Assembly: GCA_049515895.1 (NCBI GenBank)
Contig: JBEKTQ010000035.1
Location: forward strand, 1-15,876
Origin: Candidatus Bathyarchaeia archaeon
GTDB lineage: Archaea; Thermoproteota; Bathyarchaeia; Bathyarchaeales; Bathycorpusculaceae
Reading direction: 5' to 3'
Length of the DNA stretch: 15,876 nt
In this document: one piece after another, positions 1 through 8,059 of the stretch
Layout of the letters: each line of letters starts with the position of its first letter
Position numbering within the stretch: position 1 is the stretch's first letter
Program-made: the position numbers and the translations under genes
Notes under the pieces: model-generated
Databases searched by the model: none
What the model saw: only the letters and a program-made list of their open reading frames with translations
Told to the model about the DNA's origin: nothing

Positions 1-70
1 TGCAACCAATAGAAAGAGTCAGAAAGCAGTAATTCTCATAGGAATAGCTTTATTTACCGAAATAAGACCG

Positions 71-203
71 TGGCGGGCGGGGAGGGATTTGAACCCTCGA
101 CCCCCAACTTAGGAGGCTGGTGCTCTATCCGGGAAGATATCAAAACAAAGCGGGAACCCCCCTTTTGTAGAGAACTCTTCAATCCGTACTGAGCTACTCG
201 CCC
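71..203 (-). tRNA. tRNA-Arg(CCU), CCA encoded, with 55-nt non-canonical D-loop intron (127-181); 3' part host-derived, 5' part element-derived
   Basis: Minus strand reads GGGCGAG-TA-GCTC-AGTACGGAT[intron]A-GAGC-A-CCAGC-CT-CCT-AA-GTTGG-GGGTC-GAGGG-TTCAAAT-CCCTC-CCCGCCC-G-CCA, a 78-nt cloverleaf after splicing. Relaxed BHB: ACGG-ATT-GAAGA...TCTTC-CCGG-ATA; cutting after the second bulge nucleotides restores the D-loop AGTACGGATA. Confidence 0.93.
114..131 (+). repeat. attL core AGGCTGGTGCTCTATCCG
   Basis: Identical to 8417-8434; covers the tRNA from the D-loop-like CGGAT to U33. Confidence 0.95.
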
Positions 204-1168
204 ACAAAAACTTAGTAAACGAAATACCCATAGATAAACTTCTCAAAATCGAGAAAGTAGCAATCTATTTAGAAGGAAAAGGAAAACAACCAAACACCAT
301 AGATTCTTTCCGCAGACACATAAACGTCTTAGCCAGACGAACAAACTTAGACAACCCCAAAGAAGTAGAATTAGCAATAGCAAGATACAAACTGACAAAT
401 CCTTTCACAAAAGAAATTACAAATAAACCAGCATCAAACACCTACAAAGCCAAACTATGTTTCACATACCAACACTATGTCAAATTCTACAAATTAGATT
501 GGGAAGTACCAAAGTATGTTGAAGAAACACGAAGCATACAGCCACCATCAGACGCGCAATGCCAGATGCTAATAGCATCAGCTAGAGGCGCATTGTCACT
601 AAGAATAGACATAAGCATCCAGACAGGCTTAAGACCCATAGAAGTACAAGGATACAAGGGATTAAGAGTAAAAGACATACACTCAGACCAAAGAACAATC
701 ACAGCCTTAAGCACAAAAGGATGCAACCCAAGACCGCCAATGCAAATAAGCGAAGAACTAACAGCCAAACTAAGAACATACATCACAAAACACAACCTTC
801 AAGCCGAAGATTATCTTTTCAAAGGAGACGCAAAGAGATACGGCGAACACTACCGCCGAATGAGAAACAGATTAGCTGCAAAACTCAAAGACCCATCAAT
901 CAAAGCAATCCGACTCTATGACCTAAGACACTATTACATAACAAAACAACTTAGAAAGATACAAAATACTGAATTTGTCCGACAAATAGTGGGTCACAAA
1001 AACCTGAATACAACCCAAAAATATTTCCACCTACTTGCAAACACAAACGGAGAATGGATAGTCGAAGGCACAACAGACAAAGAACGAGCAAAACAACTAC
1101 TCGCAGCGGACTTCACATACCAGCTAACAACGCCAGATGGAACAATGCTGTTCAAGAAAGCAAAATGA
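116..1168 (+). CDS. int: Tyrosine recombinase/integrase, C-terminal fragment (intC) of a split gene
   Basis: The frame of ORF 566..1168 stays open upstream to the TAG at 110-112 with no ATG before 566 (AGALSGKISKQSGNPPFVENSSIRTELLAHK...). Catalytic motifs: TGLR, LYDLRH (YxxR variant of HxxR), VGHKNLNTTQKY. Confidence 0.92.
   Translation, partial: AGALSGKISKQSGNPPFVENSSIRTELLAHKNLVNEIPIDKLLKIEKVAIYLEGKGKQPNTIDSFRRHINVLARRTNLDNPKEVELAIARYKLTNPFTKEITNKPASNTYKAKLCFTYQHYVKFYKLDWEVPKYVEETRSIQPPSDAQCQMLIASARGALSLRIDISIQTGLRPIEVQGYKGLRVKDIHSDQRTITALSTKGCNPRPPMQISEELTAKLRTYITKHNLQAEDYLFKGDAKRYGEHYRRMRNRLAAKLKDPSIKAIRLYDLRHYYITKQLRKIQNTEFVRQIVGHKNLNTTQKYFHLLANTNGEWIVEGTTDKERAKQLLAADFTYQLTTPDGTMLFKKAK
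231..244 (-). promoter_or_regulatory. Candidate BRE/TATA promoter for the restored tRNA-Arg, embedded antisense in int
   Basis: Minus strand GAGAAG-TTTATCTA ends 28 nt upstream of tRNA G1 (203). Confidence 0.55.
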
Positions 1169-1332
1169 TGAGCTCGATTCTAATTTCCATATTCTTACTG
1201 CTTGCTCACGCGCGCGCTTGCTAATTGAGAAAGGCATTATCATGGAAGAGGAATACGAAATAGAAATCAAACAGAAAGTCAAGGTCAAATAATCAAAGAT
1301 GTTAAATCTGAAAACATACCACTAATACCATA

Positions 1333-2715
1333 ATGTCAGTACGTGACTACTTTAACACTAATACGATCTATTGTGGTGACTGCCAAGATGTTTTAAGGAA
1401 ATTTCCTGCTGAATGCGTCGATATGATATATGCTGACCCACCCTTTTTTTCAGAAGAAGGATATGAAATTCTTTGGCATGATGGATTTGAAATAAGAGCC
1501 TTTGAGGACAGATGGAAAGGCGGTATCAATAATTATGTAACATGGATGGAACCTAAACTAATGGAGTGCTACAGAGTTTTGAAGAATAACGGTTCCATGT
1601 ATCTCCATTGTGATTTCCATGCAGACGCTCACCTTAGAGTTTTAATGGATAGAATCTTTACCAGTAGAAGCTTCAAAAACGAGATTGTATGGCAGAGAAC
1701 TAATGCTCATCCAAACGCTGGTAAAAGTTACGGAAGATTACACGATGTTATCCTATTTTACACGAAATCAGATGAGTACACTTGGAACATCCAATATGTC
1801 CCTTATACTGACAGTCACGTTTCTTCTTCTTACCGATACAAAGAACCGAAAACTGGAAGACTTTACGCATCTAGAGACTTGACAGCTTCTGTTTATCACG
1901 CATCGTCTGGGCAAGTATACACGTGGAAGGGAAAGAAACCACCCGCGAGCCGTGTTTGGGCGCATTCAAAAGAGGAAATGGAAAAACTTGACAAGCAAGG
2001 CAAGATTGTATACAGCAAAAATGGTTACCCCAGATTGAAACTGTATCTAGACGAAAGCCCAGGTGTTCCTCTTCAGGATATTTGGACAGATATACGACCT
2101 GTTCAGAGTCAAGCAGATGAAAGGTTAGGTTATCCTACTCAAAAACCCGAATTATTGTTGGAGAGAATAATTAAGACTTCTTCCAATCCTATGGACATAG
2201 TGCTTGATCCCTTCTGTGGTTGTGGGACTGCGATAGTTGTGGCACATAAGTTAGGGCGTAGATGGGTTGGAATCGACATTTCTCCGACAGCATGTAATTT
2301 AATGGAAAGTAGAATGAGAAGGTTGCACATTTCCCCTAATGTTATGGGTATGCCTTTAACAGAAGAGGACTTGGCGAAACTTCCACCTTTCGAGTTTCAA
2401 AATTGGGTTGTTCAAAGATTATTTGGGAGAGTATCACCACGCAAAAGCTCAGACATGGGTATTGATGGTTACAGTTTTGAGGGGCATCCTATTCAAGTTA
2501 AACAATCGCATGATATTGGAAGAAACGTAGTTGATAATTTTGAAACTGCAATGCGAAGAAGAAAAGTAAGAAAAGGAATAATTGTAGCTTTCAGTTTTGG
2601 AAAAGGAGCCTACGAAGAAGCAGCAAGGGCAAAATTGGAAGATGGCCTTGAAATAGAAGACATAACCATCAAACAACTTATCGAAGGAAAAACAGACCAG
2701 AAAACTCTGTCTTAG
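1333..2715 (+). CDS. Beta-class N6A/N4C DNA methyltransferase fused to a C-terminal Mrr-like PD-(D/E)XK endonuclease domain
   Basis: Motif IV YADPPF precedes YPTQKP and motif I VLDPFCGCGT; C-terminal FEFQNWV...DMGIDG...IQVKQ matches the Mrr_cat pattern. Confidence 0.88.
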   Translation: MSVRDYFNTNTIYCGDCQDVLRKFPAECVDMIYADPPFFSEEGYEILWHDGFEIRAFEDRWKGGINNYVTWMEPKLMECYRVLKNNGSMYLHCDFHADAHLRVLMDRIFTSRSFKNEIVWQRTNAHPNAGKSYGRLHDVILFYTKSDEYTWNIQYVPYTDSHVSSSYRYKEPKTGRLYASRDLTASVYHASSGQVYTWKGKKPPASRVWAHSKEEMEKLDKQGKIVYSKNGYPRLKLYLDESPGVPLQDIWTDIRPVQSQADERLGYPTQKPELLLERIIKTSSNPMDIVLDPFCGCGTAIVVAHKLGRRWVGIDISPTACNLMESRMRRLHISPNVMGMPLTEEDLAKLPPFEFQNWVVQRLFGRVSPRKSSDMGIDGYSFEGHPIQVKQSHDIGRNVVDNFETAMRRRKVRKGIIVAFSFGKGAYEEAARAKLEDGLEIEDITIKQLIEGKTDQKTLS

Positions 2716-2771
2716 TATATGCAAAGTCTTAAGAGGAAAAAGCAAGGAATAGATTTCGGTGCTATAATTCA

Positions 2772-2978
2772 ATGAATTGCCCTTACTGTAAAACAGAACT
2801 TCCGAATAAACCAAAAAAAGAATGGAAATACAGTTTCTATCAAGTAAAACTGTTCACTTGCCCCAAATGTAAAAAAACAACAAAAGCTTACTACCAAAAC
2901 GGCGCTCTTAACCACACAATTCCCAAGGCAAAAAATCTTAAAATTTTGTTAGGCAAAAAAGCACCACAACAAACTTAA
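2772..2978 (+). CDS. Small zinc-ribbon protein
   Basis: CPYC and CPKC pairs in a 68-aa basic ORF co-oriented with its neighbours. Confidence 0.6.
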   Translation: MNCPYCKTELPNKPKKEWKYSFYQVKLFTCPKCKKTTKAYYQNGALNHTIPKAKNLKILLGKKAPQQT

Positions 2979-3048
2979 CAGCGTCGAGTTCTGTTAAAGT
3001 TTAATTCTGGGAAGATGAATATCGTTCAATCATGGGGAGTAATATCTG

Positions 3049-3435
3049 ATGGTACCTGAAAAAGTTGAGTTTAAGCGAGTTGGACCGCCTATGGTCACCG
3101 CAAAAATTGGAGATGACTATTTCGTTGTTGAAATAACGCTCGATGGAACCCCTGACTCTACTTGGATAGACTGCTTTAAGCATCCCACAAATTACAAGTC
3201 TAATGAAGCGCATCCAAGTAGAACTACTGTTAGTCTAGGCAAAATCACGTTTTCGTCATCTAAGTCTAATATTGAGACAAATGTCGAGTGGATGGATAAA
3301 TACATTCATCAAGCAAACGATTGTTATGAGAAGAAAATGTCAGAGCAAATAGCTTTCCAAAATAGGGTTTTGGATCAAGCAAAAAAACAGCAAGAAGAAA
3401 TTGATAAAATAAACCAAAGCCTCAAAGACCTATAG
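3049..3435 (+). CDS. Hypothetical protein with C-terminal coiled coil
   Basis: 128-aa ORF with GGGGAG RBS-like motif upstream; helical Q/E/K-rich tail. Confidence 0.75.
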   Translation: MVPEKVEFKRVGPPMVTAKIGDDYFVVEITLDGTPDSTWIDCFKHPTNYKSNEAHPSRTTVSLGKITFSSSKSNIETNVEWMDKYIHQANDCYEKKMSEQIAFQNRVLDQAKKQQEEIDKINQSLKDL

Positions 3436-3483
3436 CTTTCATTTTTCGTTGGGTAACTTAACAGTATCCCCGAACACTATAAT

Positions 3484-4344
3484 ATGTTGGTAAGATTGTC
3501 ATCTTCGCTAATTCCTTGGGAAATCAGACTTGGCGCTATGGGAGAAGCTCAAATAAAAGGCAAATTGTTATACTTTTCAATCCCTCAAAAAACCGAAATT
3601 GACCTTGGAATCGATTTTTATTGCGAGTTATTAGTGAACGACAATCCAGAGATGCCATTTTATGTTCAAGCCAAAGGAACAGAACACTTTGACAAAAGCT
3701 TCAGTGTATCTATAAAGAAGACAACAATACGATACTGGCTTAGTCGCCCTTTTCCAGTTTTCTTAATAGTCTACGATGGAAAGAACGACGAATGCTATTG
3801 GATGGCAATTGAAGACTATCGTTATAGGCTGCAGGAGAAATTGCAACTAGACAACTCTGAGACTATCAGTTTTACACTAGATAGATCGCGTAGACTAGAA
3901 AAAGGAAAAGGAGCCAATCTGGAATTCAAAGCGAAAATAGCAGAAGGTCACATTTCGATTCAGCAATTCCACGGTCATCCGCAATTTGAAGGAGATGGAT
4001 ATGTCAAGAAAGTGCCGAAGCCGCCGAGGTCAGAGATTGAATTGGCGAGGACTATAGAGAGCATCAGAATTTCCATGTACTCTCTTGTAGTTCATTATTG
4101 GTTACAGGCGAAAAACCTGAATGAAGCATATTTTTACTGTAATTTTTTAACCGAGCTTGACCAAGCCCACTATAATCATTTTGTTTGGTTTGGCTTAATT
4201 AACAAGGAATTGGGAAACAGAACAGCTGCAAGGGATAATCTGGAAAAGGCATTGACAATTTGCAGAGGAGACAAAAACTGGCCTAAAGAATCAATGGAAC
4301 AGATTATTGATTATATCAAAAGTGAAATAGACAAATTAGGATGA
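3484..4344 (+). CDS. DUF4365-like PD-(D/E)XK nuclease with C-terminal TPR-like helices
   Basis: GEAQ...EIDLGIDFYCEL...FYVQAKGT...YW...PVFLIVYD pattern; C-terminal GLINKELGNRTAARDNLEKAL resembles a TPR. Confidence 0.78.
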   Translation: MLVRLSSSLIPWEIRLGAMGEAQIKGKLLYFSIPQKTEIDLGIDFYCELLVNDNPEMPFYVQAKGTEHFDKSFSVSIKKTTIRYWLSRPFPVFLIVYDGKNDECYWMAIEDYRYRLQEKLQLDNSETISFTLDRSRRLEKGKGANLEFKAKIAEGHISIQQFHGHPQFEGDGYVKKVPKPPRSEIELARTIESIRISMYSLVVHYWLQAKNLNEAYFYCNFLTELDQAHYNHFVWFGLINKELGNRTAARDNLEKALTICRGDKNWPKESMEQIIDYIKSEIDKLG

Positions 4345-4560
4345 GCGTCAAGTAGGAGTCATCAGAGAACGAATGTAAGTTTCAGGATAATCATGCAAGG
4401 TCTCGGCGTCGCTTGCGCTTGCGCGCTCGCTCCGCTTGCTATGCCGTACGGAAACGCGAAAGCCAAACGTCATACGAGAATCCTTTCACCGTGAATGCAC
4501 TTTTTCCATTTAAAGCTCAAATATGACCTGCAACCTAATTAATGAATTGAGGTAAGTACT

Positions 4561-4845
4561 ATGAAGCTCCGAAAATCGCCAGAATTCAGAAGTGTTTATG
4601 CTTCTGGTGTGTGGATTGCGGGAAGCCCAACAGAATTTAGGTTGCTTTTTTTCAACAATGAACCAATAGAAGTTGAAGCCGACCCGAAAGATGCGATGAA
4701 GAGCATTCAAGAAGAACCTTATTTCCAAGCTGAGGTCATAGTAACTCGTCCTCTTGCGGAGTGGATAAAGAATTCCTTGGACGCATTTCTCAAACAGACG
4801 GAGGTCAAACCGACAGATGCTAAAACTGAGGTTAAGACTCAATGA
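4561..4845 (+). CDS. DUF3467-like small protein
   Basis: VYASGVWIAGSPTEFRLLF...AEVIVT pattern recalled for DUF3467; RBS GAGGTAA; ATGA overlap with the next gene. Confidence 0.7.
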   Translation: MKLRKSPEFRSVYASGVWIAGSPTEFRLLFFNNEPIEVEADPKDAMKSIQEEPYFQAEVIVTRPLAEWIKNSLDAFLKQTEVKPTDAKTEVKTQ

Positions 4846-5261
4846 GTCATTATCTTCTGGAACCTGAAGAATGCAACGGTTTTTTTGAACCGAAACCACT
4901 CCCTGACACAATAGGCATCAAGGATATTGTAGATAGAAGATTCACTAGCCAGTTCTCAATACCAAATCCTCTTGTTGTGGCATATAGTCCCTCGACCAAA
5001 TCTCCTTCTGCCTCTGAACGGATTTTCAATGAAAACAAAGAAGTCTTCATTAAGCTGAAAGACGGTTTGGTTCAAAAGCCAGAATTTGAAAACAAGTTCA
5101 TTGCCATTAAAGATGGCAAGATGGTTGATTCAGATTATGACAGAAGCATATTAGTTGAAAGACTCTACACGAAGTATGGCTACGTCCCTCTTTTCATAGG
5201 AAAAGTGGTCAAACAAGAAAAATACAAAGAGTTACCCTCACCTGAGAAGGCGAAAGCATAA
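4842..5261 (+). CDS. DUF5678-like protein with an N-terminal extension
   Basis: C-terminal ENKFIAIKDGKMVDSDYDRSILVERLYTKYGYVPLFIGKV pattern; 4-nt overlaps with both neighbours. Confidence 0.72.
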   Translation: MSHYLLEPEECNGFFEPKPLPDTIGIKDIVDRRFTSQFSIPNPLVVAYSPSTKSPSASERIFNENKEVFIKLKDGLVQKPEFENKFIAIKDGKMVDSDYDRSILVERLYTKYGYVPLFIGKVVKQEKYKELPSPEKAKA

Positions 5262-5653
5262 GTCCGCAAAATTATCCGTATGATACAATAAATTTTGACC
5301 CCGCAGCTCTGATTTTAGAAGTTGAAATTGTCCATCCAAACCCTCAAGATAAAAGAAGTGTTACAAAGAAAGCCAAGATAGATACTGGTGCTGACTTTTC
5401 TGTTATTCCCTCAGAATTAAGGGATGATTGGAACCTAATCCAAACTGGCGAAATAAATACTCTTGACTTCAAGAGAGAACCTAAGGTTATACCAACATAT
5501 AATGTTAGAATAGTCATAAATGGACTCGTTAGCAAAATTGTAGAGGTTGCCGCAACAAATCGACCAGATTTGCTTTTAGGACGAGACATTTTGAACGAAA
5601 TGAAAATGCACGCAGATGGTAAGTCTCAGGTTTTCACGCTTGAAGACCCATAA
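5258..5653 (+). CDS. Retropepsin-like (clan AA) aspartic protease, putative ATA start; absent from the ORF track
   Basis: Manual translation: (M)SPQNYPYDTINFDPAALILEVEIVHP...KAKIDTGADFSVIP...DLLLGRDILNEMKMHADGKSQVFTLEDP*, 131 aa with DTG and LLGRD motifs. In-frame TGA at 5243 limits upstream extension; ATA overlaps the upstream TAA. Confidence 0.85.
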   Translation: MSPQNYPYDTINFDPAALILEVEIVHPNPQDKRSVTKKAKIDTGADFSVIPSELRDDWNLIQTGEINTLDFKREPKVIPTYNVRIVINGLVSKIVEVAATNRPDLLLGRDILNEMKMHADGKSQVFTLEDP

Positions 5654-5722
5654 AACATCTGTGAATCGTATAAATCTGACTATTTATCCCCAAAGTAAAT
5701 GATGAAAAGTCCTCACGAGCAA

Positions 5723-6013
5723 CTACTCATATTCTCGCATATACCGTTCGCCTTTCTCCGTGAGTAAATCGCAAATCTGCCCGTCACGCTTACACTTGCC
5801 TTCAGCATTAGCATCGAAACTCTCACATGGGCTTCCCAAAGATTGCATATGACGACAAGTGCTTGCCCGAATAAATTTATCCATTTCATTAGCAAAAGCA
5901 AATTTTTGAGCTGGAGGAACTTCCCCGAACATTTCTGCCCCATATGAGTTTTCCATTTTTTGACGCTCCCGTATCGAGAGTTTTTTCGGAGATTTCTTTT
6001 TCAATTTTCCCAT
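5723..6013 (-). CDS. Hypothetical protein with four Cys, coupled to rep
   Basis: TGATG stop/start overlap with rep; RBS GGGGGTGA; basic N-terminus. Confidence 0.72.
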   Translation of the reverse strand: MGKLKKKSPKKLSIRERQKMENSYGAEMFGEVPPAQKFAFANEMDKFIRASTCRHMQSLGSPCESFDANAEGKCKRDGQICDLLTEKGERYMREYE

Positions 6014-7083
6014 CAGTAATCACCCCCTTGATGATAGTAAGCAGAGCTTCCGCTATCGCATTCGCCCTTTTCTTCCCAAATTGGAAGCCCGTCATCGTCA
6101 ATTGCGCGTTCCTCAAATTCCTTAATCCAGAACTCTTTCTCAATGCGAACTCTATCATACCCCAAATAGCGCAAGGGGACACACTGAGAACCGCAGATTG
6201 GGCATAAATCAGGTTTCTCTTTAAACTCTGACCTTTTCAGCTTTAATGCTCGAATTCCACAGACTCCGAACCAAGTTAACGAATGGAAACGCCTCCTCGA
6301 TGGAATTATGGTTGAGTGATTAAGCTGATAGTAGAAGGTTCCTAAGATAGTTTTACGCTTTTCAGCAACCTTAACAATCCAGCCATCCACATCATAGGCT
6401 CGCCTTGTTCTTCCCTCAAACCCATTTCTGCACTTGCGACAAAAATCACGGTCACTTTCGTGATTGTGTGCACAATTGCGACATATGCTATAACCATCCT
6501 TTAGGAAGCCTACAGTATGCCAGTGCAAACTCCAATACCACCCGAACGGGACACTTTTCTGACGCGATTCTCGTGCATCTGCAAAACGAAAACCGTGAAA
6601 TATGAGCCCTCCTCCAATTGTTCCTCTATTACCTAGTATCTTTTGCACCCTGCCTCTTCCCTCCAAATACCCCTCGTATCCTTTGTCAAACATGCTATAC
6701 TCAATTTTCGGAACGCTTGCAATCACATGTTCCGCCTTTCCATACTTCCGAGAAGCTTTCTCTATTCGCCAAGCTGCCAATTTCGCCTCGCGAACAGCCC
6801 ACGACTTGTAACATTCAGGGCAACGAGGATTGAAACAGCGACGAATTCTTTTCTTAATGTAAGCATTATCCCTGTGATTAACGCCATCAAGAGTGGTCTT
6901 ATCATGAAAGTGAACCTTTGCGCAACCAATAAAGCCGTACATCTTGCCACACCTTTTCGGAGAGTTCGGATTGCTGTCAGTGACTTTGCCGTTTCCAACA
7001 ACTTGATAAATGCCATGAGTAGCCCACCTTTCTATTTTCAATTGTTCAGTTTCATTTACTTGCATGCTCAAGAGGTATTTCAC
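6013..7083 (-). CDS. rep: HUH-superfamily rolling-circle replication initiator (Rep) with zinc-binding motifs
   Basis: CFNPRCPEC (IS91/SNJ1-type Zn motif), motif I-like HVIASVP, HUH motif SLHWHTVG, motif III-like FYYQLNH, extra CxxC pairs. The start may instead be TTG at 7071, downstream of AGGTGA. Confidence 0.8.
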   Translation of the reverse strand: MKYLLSMQVNETEQLKIERWATHGIYQVVGNGKVTDSNPNSPKRCGKMYGFIGCAKVHFHDKTTLDGVNHRDNAYIKKRIRRCFNPRCPECYKSWAVREAKLAAWRIEKASRKYGKAEHVIASVPKIEYSMFDKGYEGYLEGRGRVQKILGNRGTIGGGLIFHGFRFADARESRQKSVPFGWYWSLHWHTVGFLKDGYSICRNCAHNHESDRDFCRKCRNGFEGRTRRAYDVDGWIVKVAEKRKTILGTFYYQLNHSTIIPSRRRFHSLTWFGVCGIRALKLKRSEFKEKPDLCPICGSQCVPLRYLGYDRVRIEKEFWIKEFEERAIDDDGLPIWEEKGECDSGSSAYYHQGGDY

Positions 7084-7106
7084 CTACAAACCATTAGTCA
7101 AAAGAG

Positions 7107-7158
7107 TTATAAAGGAAATATGGCACCTTTTACATATAAAAATGGCACCATTTAACAT
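7107..7158. promoter_or_regulatory. Divergent promoter region with ATGGCACC direct repeats
   Basis: TTATAAA at 7107-7113; ATGGCACC at 7120 and 7142 (22-bp spacing), each followed by a T-run and ACAT. Confidence 0.55.
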
Positions 7159-8059
7159 GAAAAAAGATGATGATAATAATTCGATAGCGAGCATTAATAG
7201 CATAACAGCAAGCTGCAAGCCCAGAGAAAGAGCCTTCTTCACTATAATGAGGCAAGCAGGACTTACACCCAGTCTCATTAAGAAACTAAGGATGAAAGAC
7301 CTTGAGACAACTATTCAAATACCGCTCAAAATCAACGTTCCATCAGCAGAACCTAAACCGCCAGTCTTTATTGGAGGGGAAGGAATCAAATATATTGGAC
7401 AATATTTAGCGACTAGAACGGAAGAATTGAAACCCGAAAGTCTGCTATTCGTAAATCATCAAAACATAAACAAAGAAATTAATACAAAGGATGTTAGCAG
7501 AGCATTCAGACTCGCGGCTAGGAAAGAAACGAAAGGAGATGCAAAGCTACGACTTTTCAGCCTCGTAAAGTTTTATCGAATCAACGCCAAGCATTATTTG
7601 AAAGAGTTAAGAAATCAACCATATGTAGATGATGAGACATTAAGGGCTCTTTACAGACGACATGCATTATCATGCTTGGAAATCGAGAGACAAATAGTCG
7701 TTCAAAGACACACTCCGAAAAAATGGTTCAATCAAAAGATTGAAAGTCAACAAAATCAAATTAAGGACATGGAGCACAAAGTTGCTTTAAGCAACGCCTA
7801 CCTTAGCTCTATTTTGTCACTAATCTACGACAACAAAGGAGATTGGGAAACAGGAGAAAATGTGAAGTTAGGCGATAACTTCATCAAGCTCTGGCAAAAA
7901 ACTTTAGATAAACAATTAATAAATGGTGAAGAGTTTCTTAACGGTCAAAGCAGCTACGTGCCTCCAGTTGACATTTTAGAAGAGCTGACAAATACACTGC
8001 AAAAAATATTAAAACGATACAAAGAAGCAAAGAAAGTACAGAAACCAAATAATCAATGA
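7142..8059 (+). CDS. Tyrosine-recombinase catalytic-fold-like protein with degenerate active site and coiled-coil C-terminus
   Basis: PRERAFFTIMRQAGLTPSLIKKLRMKDL (box I, catalytic R replaced by T), ESLLFVN, LRLFSLVKFY (HxxR replaced by FxxV). Likely start is ATG 7142 or 7157, not 7064, which overlaps rep. Confidence 0.68.
   Translation: MAPFNMKKDDDNNSIASINSITASCKPRERAFFTIMRQAGLTPSLIKKLRMKDLETTIQIPLKINVPSAEPKPPVFIGGEGIKYIGQYLATRTEELKPESLLFVNHQNINKEINTKDVSRAFRLAARKETKGDAKLRLFSLVKFYRINAKHYLKELRNQPYVDDETLRALYRRHALSCLEIERQIVVQRHTPKKWFNQKIESQQNQIKDMEHKVALSNAYLSSILSLIYDNKGDWETGENVKLGDNFIKLWQKTLDKQLINGEEFLNGQSSYVPPVDILEELTNTLQKILKRYKEAKKVQKPNNQ

Follow-up and report, generated by a model that had tools for sequence, protein, structure and literature searches.

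The 15,876-bp stretch of DNA analyzed here (the window) is the whole of contig C35 in a 3.18-Mb genome of 53 contigs, rated 100% complete. Positions 1 to 8434 probably hold a mobile element of 8.3 kb that has inserted into the tRNA-Arg(CCU) gene of a Bathyarchaeia-like archaeon, with an integrase gene split by the integration and with a tRNA 5′ exon and intron carried by the element itself. The element is bounded by two copies of an attachment (att) core, and the two parts of the integrase gene lie at its opposite ends. Relatives, comprising Bathyarchaeia metagenome-assembled genomes (MAGs) and metagenome contigs, were compared at both junctions; in these the exon and intron belong to the element, and the intron keeps both its base pairing and an open integrase frame.

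By inspection of the sequence, a tRNA-Arg(CCU) gene was located at 71 to 203 on the minus strand, interrupted by a 55-nt insert in the D-loop. A 22-nt 5′ part (203 to 182) is followed by the insert (181 to 127) and by a 56-nt 3′ part (126 to 71) with the anticodon CCU and a CCA end. The host-derived portion of this 3′ exon is 71 to 113, and the exon is 100% identical in many genomes of the genus. An uninterrupted tRNA-Arg(CCU) gene in a syntenic relative (locus L016) has exactly the same 22 nt as its 5′ part, which, together with the pairing and frame constraints across relatives described below, argues that the arrangement at 116 to 244 is more than chance. There, as a preliminary description of this DNA had laid out, an open integrase frame on the plus strand lies opposite the att core, intron, 5′ exon, and promoter-like motifs on the minus strand. 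That description also held that loss of the 55-nt intron would bring the frame to a stop, and deletion in silico reproduced its series of codons, ending ACT TAG. The last nucleotides of the intron (CGGAT), which it had taken for the att-core copy of the D-loop, lie inside the 18-bp repeat and also follow GTA in the 5′ part.

Using ARAGORN at default settings, 0 tRNAs were identified in the window, and no Rfam match to the chimeric tRNA gene was obtained at the gathering score; a relaxed E value gave a partial tRNA match at 82 to 139 (24.9 bits). Since these default searches overlook the gene, the genome appears to be without a tRNA-Arg(CCU). With introns allowed, ARAGORN returned an Arg(acg) with an intron in the anticodon loop, a candidate that was rejected by inspection and by comparison with uninterrupted alleles. 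Spliced in silico, the tRNA folds into acceptor, D, anticodon-region, and T helices with −31.7 kcal/mol, and its standard cloverleaf (−26.4 kcal/mol) has a single mismatch, A6·C67. Its D-loop is that of the tRNA-Arg(UCU) gene on contig C4. No second full-length tRNA-Arg(CCU) gene was found in this complete genome, only degenerate fragments on C1 and C27. These partial copies of the middle and 3′ part (G000:C1:25026-25065 and G000:C27:49558-49586) are likely old att remnants. Clusters of partial 3′-end copies also occur near tRNA-Arg(CCU) in many genomes of the genus, which suggests that other element families target its 3′ end.

On the plus strand, frame 2 opens after a TAG at 110 to 112 and runs to a stop at 1166 to 1168, forming the downstream part of the integrase gene, int(C). 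The first ATG, GTG, or TTG in this frame lies at 566, preceded by 151 open codons, and int(C) as it stands therefore cannot be a normal gene. Pfam PF00589 matched residues 165 to 308 (E value, 1.3e−12), PHROG integrase families were matched as well, and a protein search with the integrase retrieved 678 relatives at an E value of ≤1e−3. R174, K202, H273, R290, H295, and Y304 are invariant across 20 aligned members of the family and, judging from the family consensus, would form the catalytic Arg/Lys/His/Arg/His-Trp/Tyr set of tyrosine recombinases. The enzyme is predicted to act in integration and excision at the proposed att sites.

The absence of ATG, GTG, and TTG from 113 to 565 is explained by an integrase start at the other end of the element, at 8290. 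The ORF beginning there, int(N), reaches the right repeat in the frame by which int(C) reads the left one; of the other two frames, one ends 3 codons and the other 1 codon short of the core. Excision in silico through one copy of the core gave a 393-codon ORF with no stop. The integrase gene is split by integration in an SSV-type (“suicidal”) arrangement. The preliminary description had reckoned with an integrase start downstream of 203 as a result that would speak against it; the start was found at 8290, across the att core. An early reading in which the integrase started in the intron, or was a pseudogene, was dropped after the ORF at 8290 was found.

The same organization was identified in relatives. 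From 65 pattern hits in all fetched loci, 12 sites of the second junction type (junction B) were picked by eye, namely, those with the antisense D-loop and exon, or an intron, after the core. Nine of these have an ATG-initiated ORF that continues into the core in the int(C) frame (window, L016, L019, L020, L106, L113, L115, L133, and L140); L056 and L084 had open stubs with no start, and in L015 another frame was used. These int(N)-type ORFs comprise 14 to 43 or more codons and share a motif adjoining the core (..LL.PK or ..IL..). Among 52 relatives with an intact integrase (window included), the first canonical start lies at least 214 nt beyond the core in 11, as expected for split genes. A GTG or ATG lies 4 nt from the core in 17 of the 52 and a start elsewhere in the intron in 14, so that part of the family keeps a usable gene after integration. 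Many homologues begin with M-x-S-IRTELLAH, in which IRTELLA corresponds to the tRNA 5′ exon read antisense; another group reads the exon one base over, as SVLSYSP.

The right end of the element was located by BLAST of the window against the loci of relatives, in which 8417 to 8562 resembled the region upstream of their tRNA-Arg(CCU) genes. A search with a 21-mer, allowing ≤3 mismatches, gave one att copy only, as no more than 13 of the 21 bases are retained at the junction. The 5′ fragment displaced from the former tRNA gene consists of a 9-nt exon (8477 to 8469), a 26-nt intron between nucleotides 9 and 10 (8468 to 8443), and the 5′ part of the D-arm, with one base changed. The displaced allele was without the D-loop intron but with the 9/10 intron. 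This intron class and its upstream flank are also present in intact genes (L036, L042, L043, L047, and L058). Introns of the class are 26 to 30 nt long, have their own conserved upstream flank, and are probably the legacy of another type of element. An older integrase remnant lies ∼175 nt beyond the displaced fragment and appears to mark an earlier element at tRNA-Arg(CCU); together, the 9/10 intron and this remnant suggest that the front half of the target had already been supplied by an earlier element.

Uninterrupted alleles were found in relatives. L016, which shares the downstream flank of the window, has an uninterrupted tRNA-Arg(CCU) gene and, 3.85 kb away, a truncated copy (exon 1, 55-nt intron, and core, broken off after AAGTT) beside a frameshifted integrase gene. 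Overall, 6075 to 14400 of L016 form a tandem array of the uninterrupted gene, a 3.85-kb insert, the truncated intron-bearing copy, and a third copy of the core at 14368. A second tandem array was seen in L113 (∼3627 to 3790), where int(N) of one element directly adjoins an older element's intron and exon in frame, giving a hybrid ORF.

The tRNA region was matched in 58 of 60 genomes of the genus. Among 29 loci of the genus, which were the best ones fetched and not a random sample, 12 were uninterrupted, 11 had D-loop introns, five had the 9/10 intron, and one was unclassified. The 11 D-loop introns are 29 to 71 nt long and unrelated in sequence. Classes of upstream flank track the intron class, even in uninterrupted genes, and the front half with its promoter has evidently been replaced repeatedly. 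A homologue of the window gene at 10025 to 11107 lies ∼280 bp from an uninterrupted gene in L053 and ∼330 bp from a gene with a 66-nt intron in L031, with no integrase between in the latter. D-loop introns are also present in four genomes (G393, G370, G320, and G175) although no integrase was matched there at an E value of ≤1e−60; introns thus outlast elements, and integrase coding, which the preliminary description had supposed to prevent loss of the intron, is not required for its persistence.

Of 103 genomes sampled within the same taxonomic family, 10 had the integrase family; none of the 297 sampled from the other families of the class did. Of 80 loci kept from 167 metagenome stretches, 73 had the antisense exon beside the integrase. 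These comparisons support the assignment of the intron, the 5′ exon, and the upstream region to the element. The proposal that the intron is an arm of the element is borne out by the 5′ fragment displaced 8.3 kb away, at 8417 to 8477, and by the uninterrupted alleles of relatives. Two integrase subgroups (L017/L018/L076/L077 and L117/L132/L139) sit elsewhere than at tRNA-Arg(CCU), one beside a short element that has no tRNA body but a perfect acceptor-like stem of 7 bp ending in GCCA, the other beside a protein-coding gene. Both subgroups, and loci whose sequence ended before the exon, are left out of the intron counts.

To describe the intron at the RNA level, 69 distinct D-loop introns of 29 to 99 nt were pooled from all loci. 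The unconstrained minimum-energy fold of 71 to 203 (minus strand) has −54.5 kcal/mol, with a z-score of −2.72 against 200 shuffles, and pairs GAAGA with TCTTC. From the exons inward, the window pre-tRNA shows the D-stem, a 4-by-4 loop, a CGG/CCG helix, a 3-nt AUU bulge, and the GAAGA/UCUUC helix. The canonical archaeal bulge-helix-bulge has two 3-nt bulges that hold the splice sites and a 4-bp helix between them. In all 69 introns, exon nucleotides 18 and 19 (C18-G and G19-C/U) pair with intron positions −4 and −5, and the 5′ splice site lies in a 3-nt bulge (A-U/C-N); the 3′ site lies in A-N-A. Further pairs of the central helix join nucleotide 20 with −6 in 35 of the 69 and nucleotide 17 with −3 in five.

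The intron helix pairs position 2 onward with −7 backward, and its first six positions are paired in 5.54 of 6 cases on average. Sliding the register by 1 to 3 positions lowered this value to 2.0 to 2.8, and swapping arms between introns lowered it to 3.14 (maximum of 3.57 in 500 permutations). Up to six standard pair types occur at a single position. Of the 483 pairing cells, 341 are Watson-Crick pairs; G·U on the tRNA strand accounts for 97, and A·C, equivalent to G·U on the other strand, for only five. This imbalance points to selection on an RNA of tRNA polarity and not on a DNA palindrome or the integrase mRNA. Compensatory changes in the GAAGA/TCTTC helix, which had been put forward as a check, were thus present across the 69 introns, and the suggestion that the intron ends are shaped into a bulge-helix-bulge holds for a relaxed fold of this kind, kept by covariation.

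Two further features of the introns were observed. An inverted copy of the att core lies mid-intron in 23 of the 69 (at least 8 of 10 matches to GGCTGGTGCT; 3.6 expected from shuffles and eight found with the motif reversed), among them L019, L023, L081, and L083, while the window intron matches at 6 of 10. This copy could be an integrase-binding site or a partner for pairing with exon 2 in RNA. In L024, a 68-nt intron duplicates the segment of the tRNA from the anticodon loop to the T arm, and L024 is the sole locus with an intact integrase in which the first start lies just after the exon (an ATG 12 nt past it).

The other strand of the intron was examined for its coding frame. Introns beside intact integrases are without a stop in the integrase frame in 48 of 52 cases; the remaining frames are free of stops in 13 and 21 of them. 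The introns were clustered greedily at 70% and 80% identity, as single linkage at 60% merged nearly all into one cluster; with one intron per 70% cluster, 25 of 28 are open, versus 10 and 11 in the other frames. By length and reading, 17 of these 28 clusters are 3n+1 with IRTELL, five are 3n with SVLSY, four are 3n with IRTELL, and two are 3n+2. In the four 3n clusters with IRTELL the core is read in another frame, and the third reading frame of the 5′ exon contains a TGA. The constraint therefore appears to be an ORF kept open, with intron length paired to an open reading of the exon, and not 3n+1 as such. Accordingly, of the check proposed in the preliminary description, the frame constraint stood, but the fixed 3n+1 length, seen in 17 of 28 clusters only, did not. 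An A at intron position −6 helps the antisense GTG start beside the core and breaks the pair with nucleotide 20; the window has a C there and so has the better helix and no internal start. Taken together, the comparisons support an intron that would be constrained on both strands, by an RNA helix on that of the tRNA and by an open frame on that of the integrase. Coordinates of the features are collected in Table 1.

Table 1. Positions of the element, the chimeric tRNA gene, and associated features in the window
Feature	Position	Strand	Remarks
Host flank, downstream of tRNA gene	1–70		Contig begins here; homologous to the flank of the uninterrupted tRNA-Arg(CCU) of L016 and to four other genus loci
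tRNA-Arg(CCU) 3′ exon	71–126	−	D-stem 3′ strand, anticodon arm CCU, variable loop, T arm, acceptor 3′ strand, CCA
int(C)	113–1168	+	Tyrosine integrase; 351 open codons plus stop
att core, left copy	114–131		18-bp exact direct repeat, AGGCTGGTGCTCTATCCG on plus strand; identity ends exactly at both borders
D-loop intron, element-borne	127–181	−	55 nt, last 5 nt in att core; plus strand gives integrase codons (GKISKQSGNPPFVENSS)
Integrated element body	132–8416		Circle with one core copy, 8303 bp
Element-carried tRNA 5′ exon	182–203	−	Acceptor 5′ strand, D-stem 5′ strand, most of D-loop; plus strand reads IRTELLA
Putative TATA box and BRE-like purines	231–244	−	TATA box 238 to 231 (TTTATCTA), GAGAAG 244 to 239; predicted from motif positions
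DNA methylase (N6_N4_Mtase) fused to Mrr-like restriction-endonuclease domain	1333–2715	+	Pfam; cargo
DUF4365 protein	3484–4344	+	Pfam; cargo
int(N)	8290–8416	+	ATG (directly after TAA) and 42 codons, in frame into right att core (...SLLRPK then AGALS)
att core, right copy	8417–8434		Exact 18-bp repeat
Displaced 5′ fragment of former tRNA-Arg(CCU)	8435–8477	−	8417–8477 with core copy; tRNA similarity ends after AGCCT
Older integrase remnant, last 31 codons	8653–8745	+	55% identity to residues 321–351; E value, 0.0115 (weak)

In the explanation proposed here, the free 8303-bp circle would carry the integrase gene whole, with 393 codons. Codons 44 to 49 would form the att core, whose 18 bp match the part of the tRNA from D-loop to anticodon stem, and the codons past the core would run opposite the element-borne front of the tRNA, that is, the 50 nt of the 55-nt intron that lie beyond the core, the 22-nt exon, and an A/T-rich promoter-like box. 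Recombination at the core would cut the resident tRNA gene midway. Its old 5′ part and promoter would be moved 8.3 kb away and fused to the first 43 integrase codons (int(N)), and the host 3′ part (71 to 113) would be joined to the core, intron, 5′ exon, and promoter of the element. The cell would be left with a single full-length tRNA-Arg(CCU) gene, the transcript of which must lose the D-loop intron, possibly through the relaxed bulge-helix-bulge at the intron ends, a structure of the kind cut by the archaeal splicing endonuclease. Excision would depend on an intact integrase supplied from elsewhere, because int(C) in its integrated form is without a start codon.

The chimeric gene would be transcribed from the putative promoter of the element, with a predicted start at about 205 to 212 on the minus strand. 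Its TATA-like box resembles those of 35 other tRNA genes of the genome, and the plus strand of the region reads as integrase codons P-I-D-K-L-L, of which the conserved I-D-K coincide with the box. The transcript is predicted to be spliced and the chimeric tRNA to function. Two matches to PF01974 (tRNA_int_endo) above the cutoff were identified in the genome, on C31 and C3, and two endonuclease-domain genes would correspond to the makeup of the broad-specificity heterotetrameric splicing enzyme of the lineage. Across 83 left junctions, acceptor pairing between exon and host was 6.52 of 7 compared with 6.37 (maximum, 6.45) for permuted partners, slightly but consistently better. Exon position 6 and host position 67 form G-C in 31, A-U in eight, U-A in five, and A·C in 33 of these junctions. 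Two metatranscriptome runs (X1 and X2, labeled wetland metagenomes; shares of 0.06 and 0.05) were available as strandless contigs only, which cannot show an absence of splicing. Some of their contigs diverge at 125 to 131, one of them resembling the intron type of relatives, and one covers 182 to 252.

Several observations weigh against this explanation. The TATA-like box lies 6 to 9 nt nearer the gene than in the 35 other tRNA genes, and the chimeric tRNA has the A6·C67 mismatch in its acceptor stem. The motif at the splice sites is relaxed: the central helix has three Watson-Crick pairs plus A·G in the window and only two pairs in 34 of the 69 introns, and the 3′ splice site of the window lies in the 4-by-4 internal loop of the minimum-energy fold instead of a clean 3-nt bulge. 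A 132-nt contig from the RNA runs spans 63 to 194 unspliced; it shows 11 differences and may derive from a relative or from DNA. None of the contigs of these two runs contained a spliced joint, with the limit just given. As for the integrase, neither a free circular form nor a database protein with int(N) fused to int(C) was found; int(N) is short and of low complexity, and a second ATG at 8359 is an equally possible start. A search of int(N) against longer proteins gave no match, which is weak evidence either way. Relatives are also kin, so that the intron and junction counts overstate independence.

The lack of a spliced joint in the RNA-run contigs, the acceptor mismatch, and the relaxed bulge-helix-bulge would suit a left junction that is only an att scar, with the chimeric gene unexpressed or unspliced, AGG read by tRNA-Arg(UCU), and the helix serving, for example, integrase binding in attP. 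The tRNA-Arg(UCU) gene needed for this is present on C4, and the excess of inverted core copies in the introns fits protein-binding DNA. Nevertheless, this alternative appears unlikely. Neither a DNA palindrome nor a structure in the integrase mRNA would tolerate the bias of G·U over A·C, the register of the helix is fixed relative to the exon ends whatever the intron length, and D-loop introns persist in the genomes with no close integrase found. The mismatch is shared with uninterrupted alleles of the genus, and no other full-length tRNA-Arg(CCU) was found in the complete genome.

Just as improbable, in our estimate, is that the integrase is unsplit, either as a start-less pseudogene or with a noncanonical start in or after the intron, and that the ORF at 8290 is aligned by chance. 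Starts within the intron in many relatives (17 and 14 of 52, above), the ATG after the exon in L024, the unmatched int(N) search, and the variation of int(N) peptides from 14 to 43 residues fit such a reading. It leaves unexplained, however, that 9 of 12 junction-B sites have an ATG ORF in the core frame of int(C), with the other frames soon closed and a common motif, and that 11 of 52 intact frames are start-less until deep in the conserved protein (151 codons in the window). That the insert is a native host intron of tRNA-Arg(CCU), with an integrase merely adjacent and a frame open by accident, is very hard to sustain. tRNA genes of the lineage do have introns (tRNA-Ser(GGA) in the window and several others by intron-allowing ARAGORN), but here the displaced 5′ fragment and the 18-bp repeat bound an element, uninterrupted alleles occur in the same genus and at the syntenic site, the intron sequence class tracks the integrase class, and the avoidance of stops is confined to the integrase frame.

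An integrated element with a self-split integrase, as proposed for the window, has partial precedents. Self-splitting integrases (PMC8371274) and a proposal of intron donation by attP (PMC3293823) are already known. Suicidal integrases of SSV1, pTN3, and pT26-2 have the att core inside the integrase ORF, target tRNA genes, and have their gene split into int(N) and int(C); PF16795 marks their clade, and they are described in hyperthermophiles, according to PMC8371274. The type is also treated by Badel et al. 2020 (PMC7253208). Like these, the window has its core within the ORF, int(N) and int(C) at the element ends, a tRNA target, and a start-less integrated copy. Unlike the SSV/pTN3/pT26-2 clade as outlined there, the window integrase matches PF00589 only, and PF16795 gave no match at an E value of ≤10, at which HMMER filters discard most weak matches. 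The setting also differs from the hyperthermophile hosts of that account, as the relatives are Bathyarchaeia-like MAGs and the two transcriptome runs are labeled wetland metagenomes. In further contrast with the SSV type, the core lies mid-tRNA, with the 5′ half replaced by the element instead of the 3′ end, and the strand opposite the ORF carries an intron, an exon, and a promoter-like box; many integrases of the family also keep an internal start beside the core (17 of 52 at 4 nt). The latter resemble the pNOB8 type, whose gene is intact after integration (PMC8371274 and PMC3293823); unlike that type, the window copy has no such start, and even in start-keeping members the ORF overlaps the tRNA 5′ exon and intron.

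For intron donation, the closest case is tRNA-Thr(GGU) of Caldiarchaeum subterraneum, for whose intron at 24/25 an attP origin was proposed (Sugahara et al. 2012, PMC3293823). As in that model, a 5′ tRNA fragment is left as a direct repeat, the reconstituted gene gains an intron in the D-arm region, and a recombinase gene is adjacent; what it leads one to look for was found in the window and its relatives, namely, intron-free alleles (12 of 29 loci, and L016), the displaced 5′ fragment at 8417 to 8477, and the integrase at 113 to 1168. The published case concerns one locus, with a recombinase on the same strand and no overlap with the tRNA, whereas here a family is involved (678 proteins and 69 distinct introns) and the integrase ORF contains the intron, exon, and promoter region in antisense orientation. 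Constraint at the RNA and protein levels is supported here by covariation and by the frame statistics.

Noncanonical bulge-helix-bulge introns of Thermoproteota tRNAs, and intron transposition, were reportedly described by Marck and Grosjean and by Fujishima et al. The introns studied here resemble those in lying outside 37/38, in having a relaxed motif, and in occurring in a host with two endonuclease-domain genes; they differ in that the source is identified (the attP arm of the element) and in being protein coding on the other strand. In the literature searched, with subscription journals outside its scope, no report was found of this Bathyarchaeia integrase family or of a split integrase of the PF00589 type. 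The same search, within the same scope, returned nothing on mid-tRNA targeting with replacement of the 5′ half or on an overlap of an antisense intron, exon, and promoter with an integrase gene.

The source of noncanonical archaeal tRNA introns is an old open question, and the sole published mechanistic proposal found (Sugahara et al. 2012, repeated in a 2021 review) rests on a single locus. The element family may well be a vector that creates, replaces, and leaves behind such introns, with an antisense promoter, exon, and intron in the 5′ end of its integrase gene, a swap of the tRNA front half at each integration, and introns that outlive the element; self-splitting integrases would then also have arisen independently in this family, apart from the PF16795 clade and from hyperthermophiles. 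Dozens of independent-looking cases, with both junctions and with intermediate states (uninterrupted alleles, two intron positions, tandem arrays, and introns with no close integrase found at an E value of ≤1e−60), make the attP-intron proposal testable and show one route by which odd tRNA introns can arise. The self-splitting arrangement is extended to a PF00589-type family in Bathyarchaeia, and one stretch of DNA combines selection on RNA structure on one strand with protein coding on the other, with a visible trade-off at intron position −6.

Besides the integrase, the element carries the methylase-Mrr and DUF4365 genes, which may be defense-type cargo, and a 331-residue ORF (7064 to 8059) with a weak match to PF00589 (E value, 0.0033). 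Using Pfam and PHROGs, no virus hallmark was identified in the element. Scans of viral contigs by protein and by alignment gave no close relative, only three loci at 28 to 40% identity, and thus neither a free viral form nor evidence of the element being a virus.

Host genes follow to the right from ∼10025, including an Fe-ADH_2 family gene, an FKBP gene, a tRNA-Ser gene, and a peroxidase-family gene. The tRNA-Ser(GGA) gene (12678 to 12792, plus strand) has a 26-nt intron and was seen only by intron-allowing ARAGORN. Its 3′ end recurs as a degenerate repeat ∼740 bp downstream (∼13505 to 13540), possibly the border of a small integrated cassette at this second tRNA, and the two small ORFs in between (12936 to 13157 and 13163 to 13432) are guessed to be a toxin-antitoxin pair. 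The G+C content of 14001 to 15876, over the minus-strand peroxidase-family gene, is 0.56 to 0.60 compared with 0.35 to 0.50 elsewhere in the window; similar values occur in a few small contigs of the assembly, and this part could be a transferred gene or bin contamination. Finally, a 16.5-kb metagenome contig (L065) is 100% identical to the window over the integrase and extends ∼1.2 kb further left.

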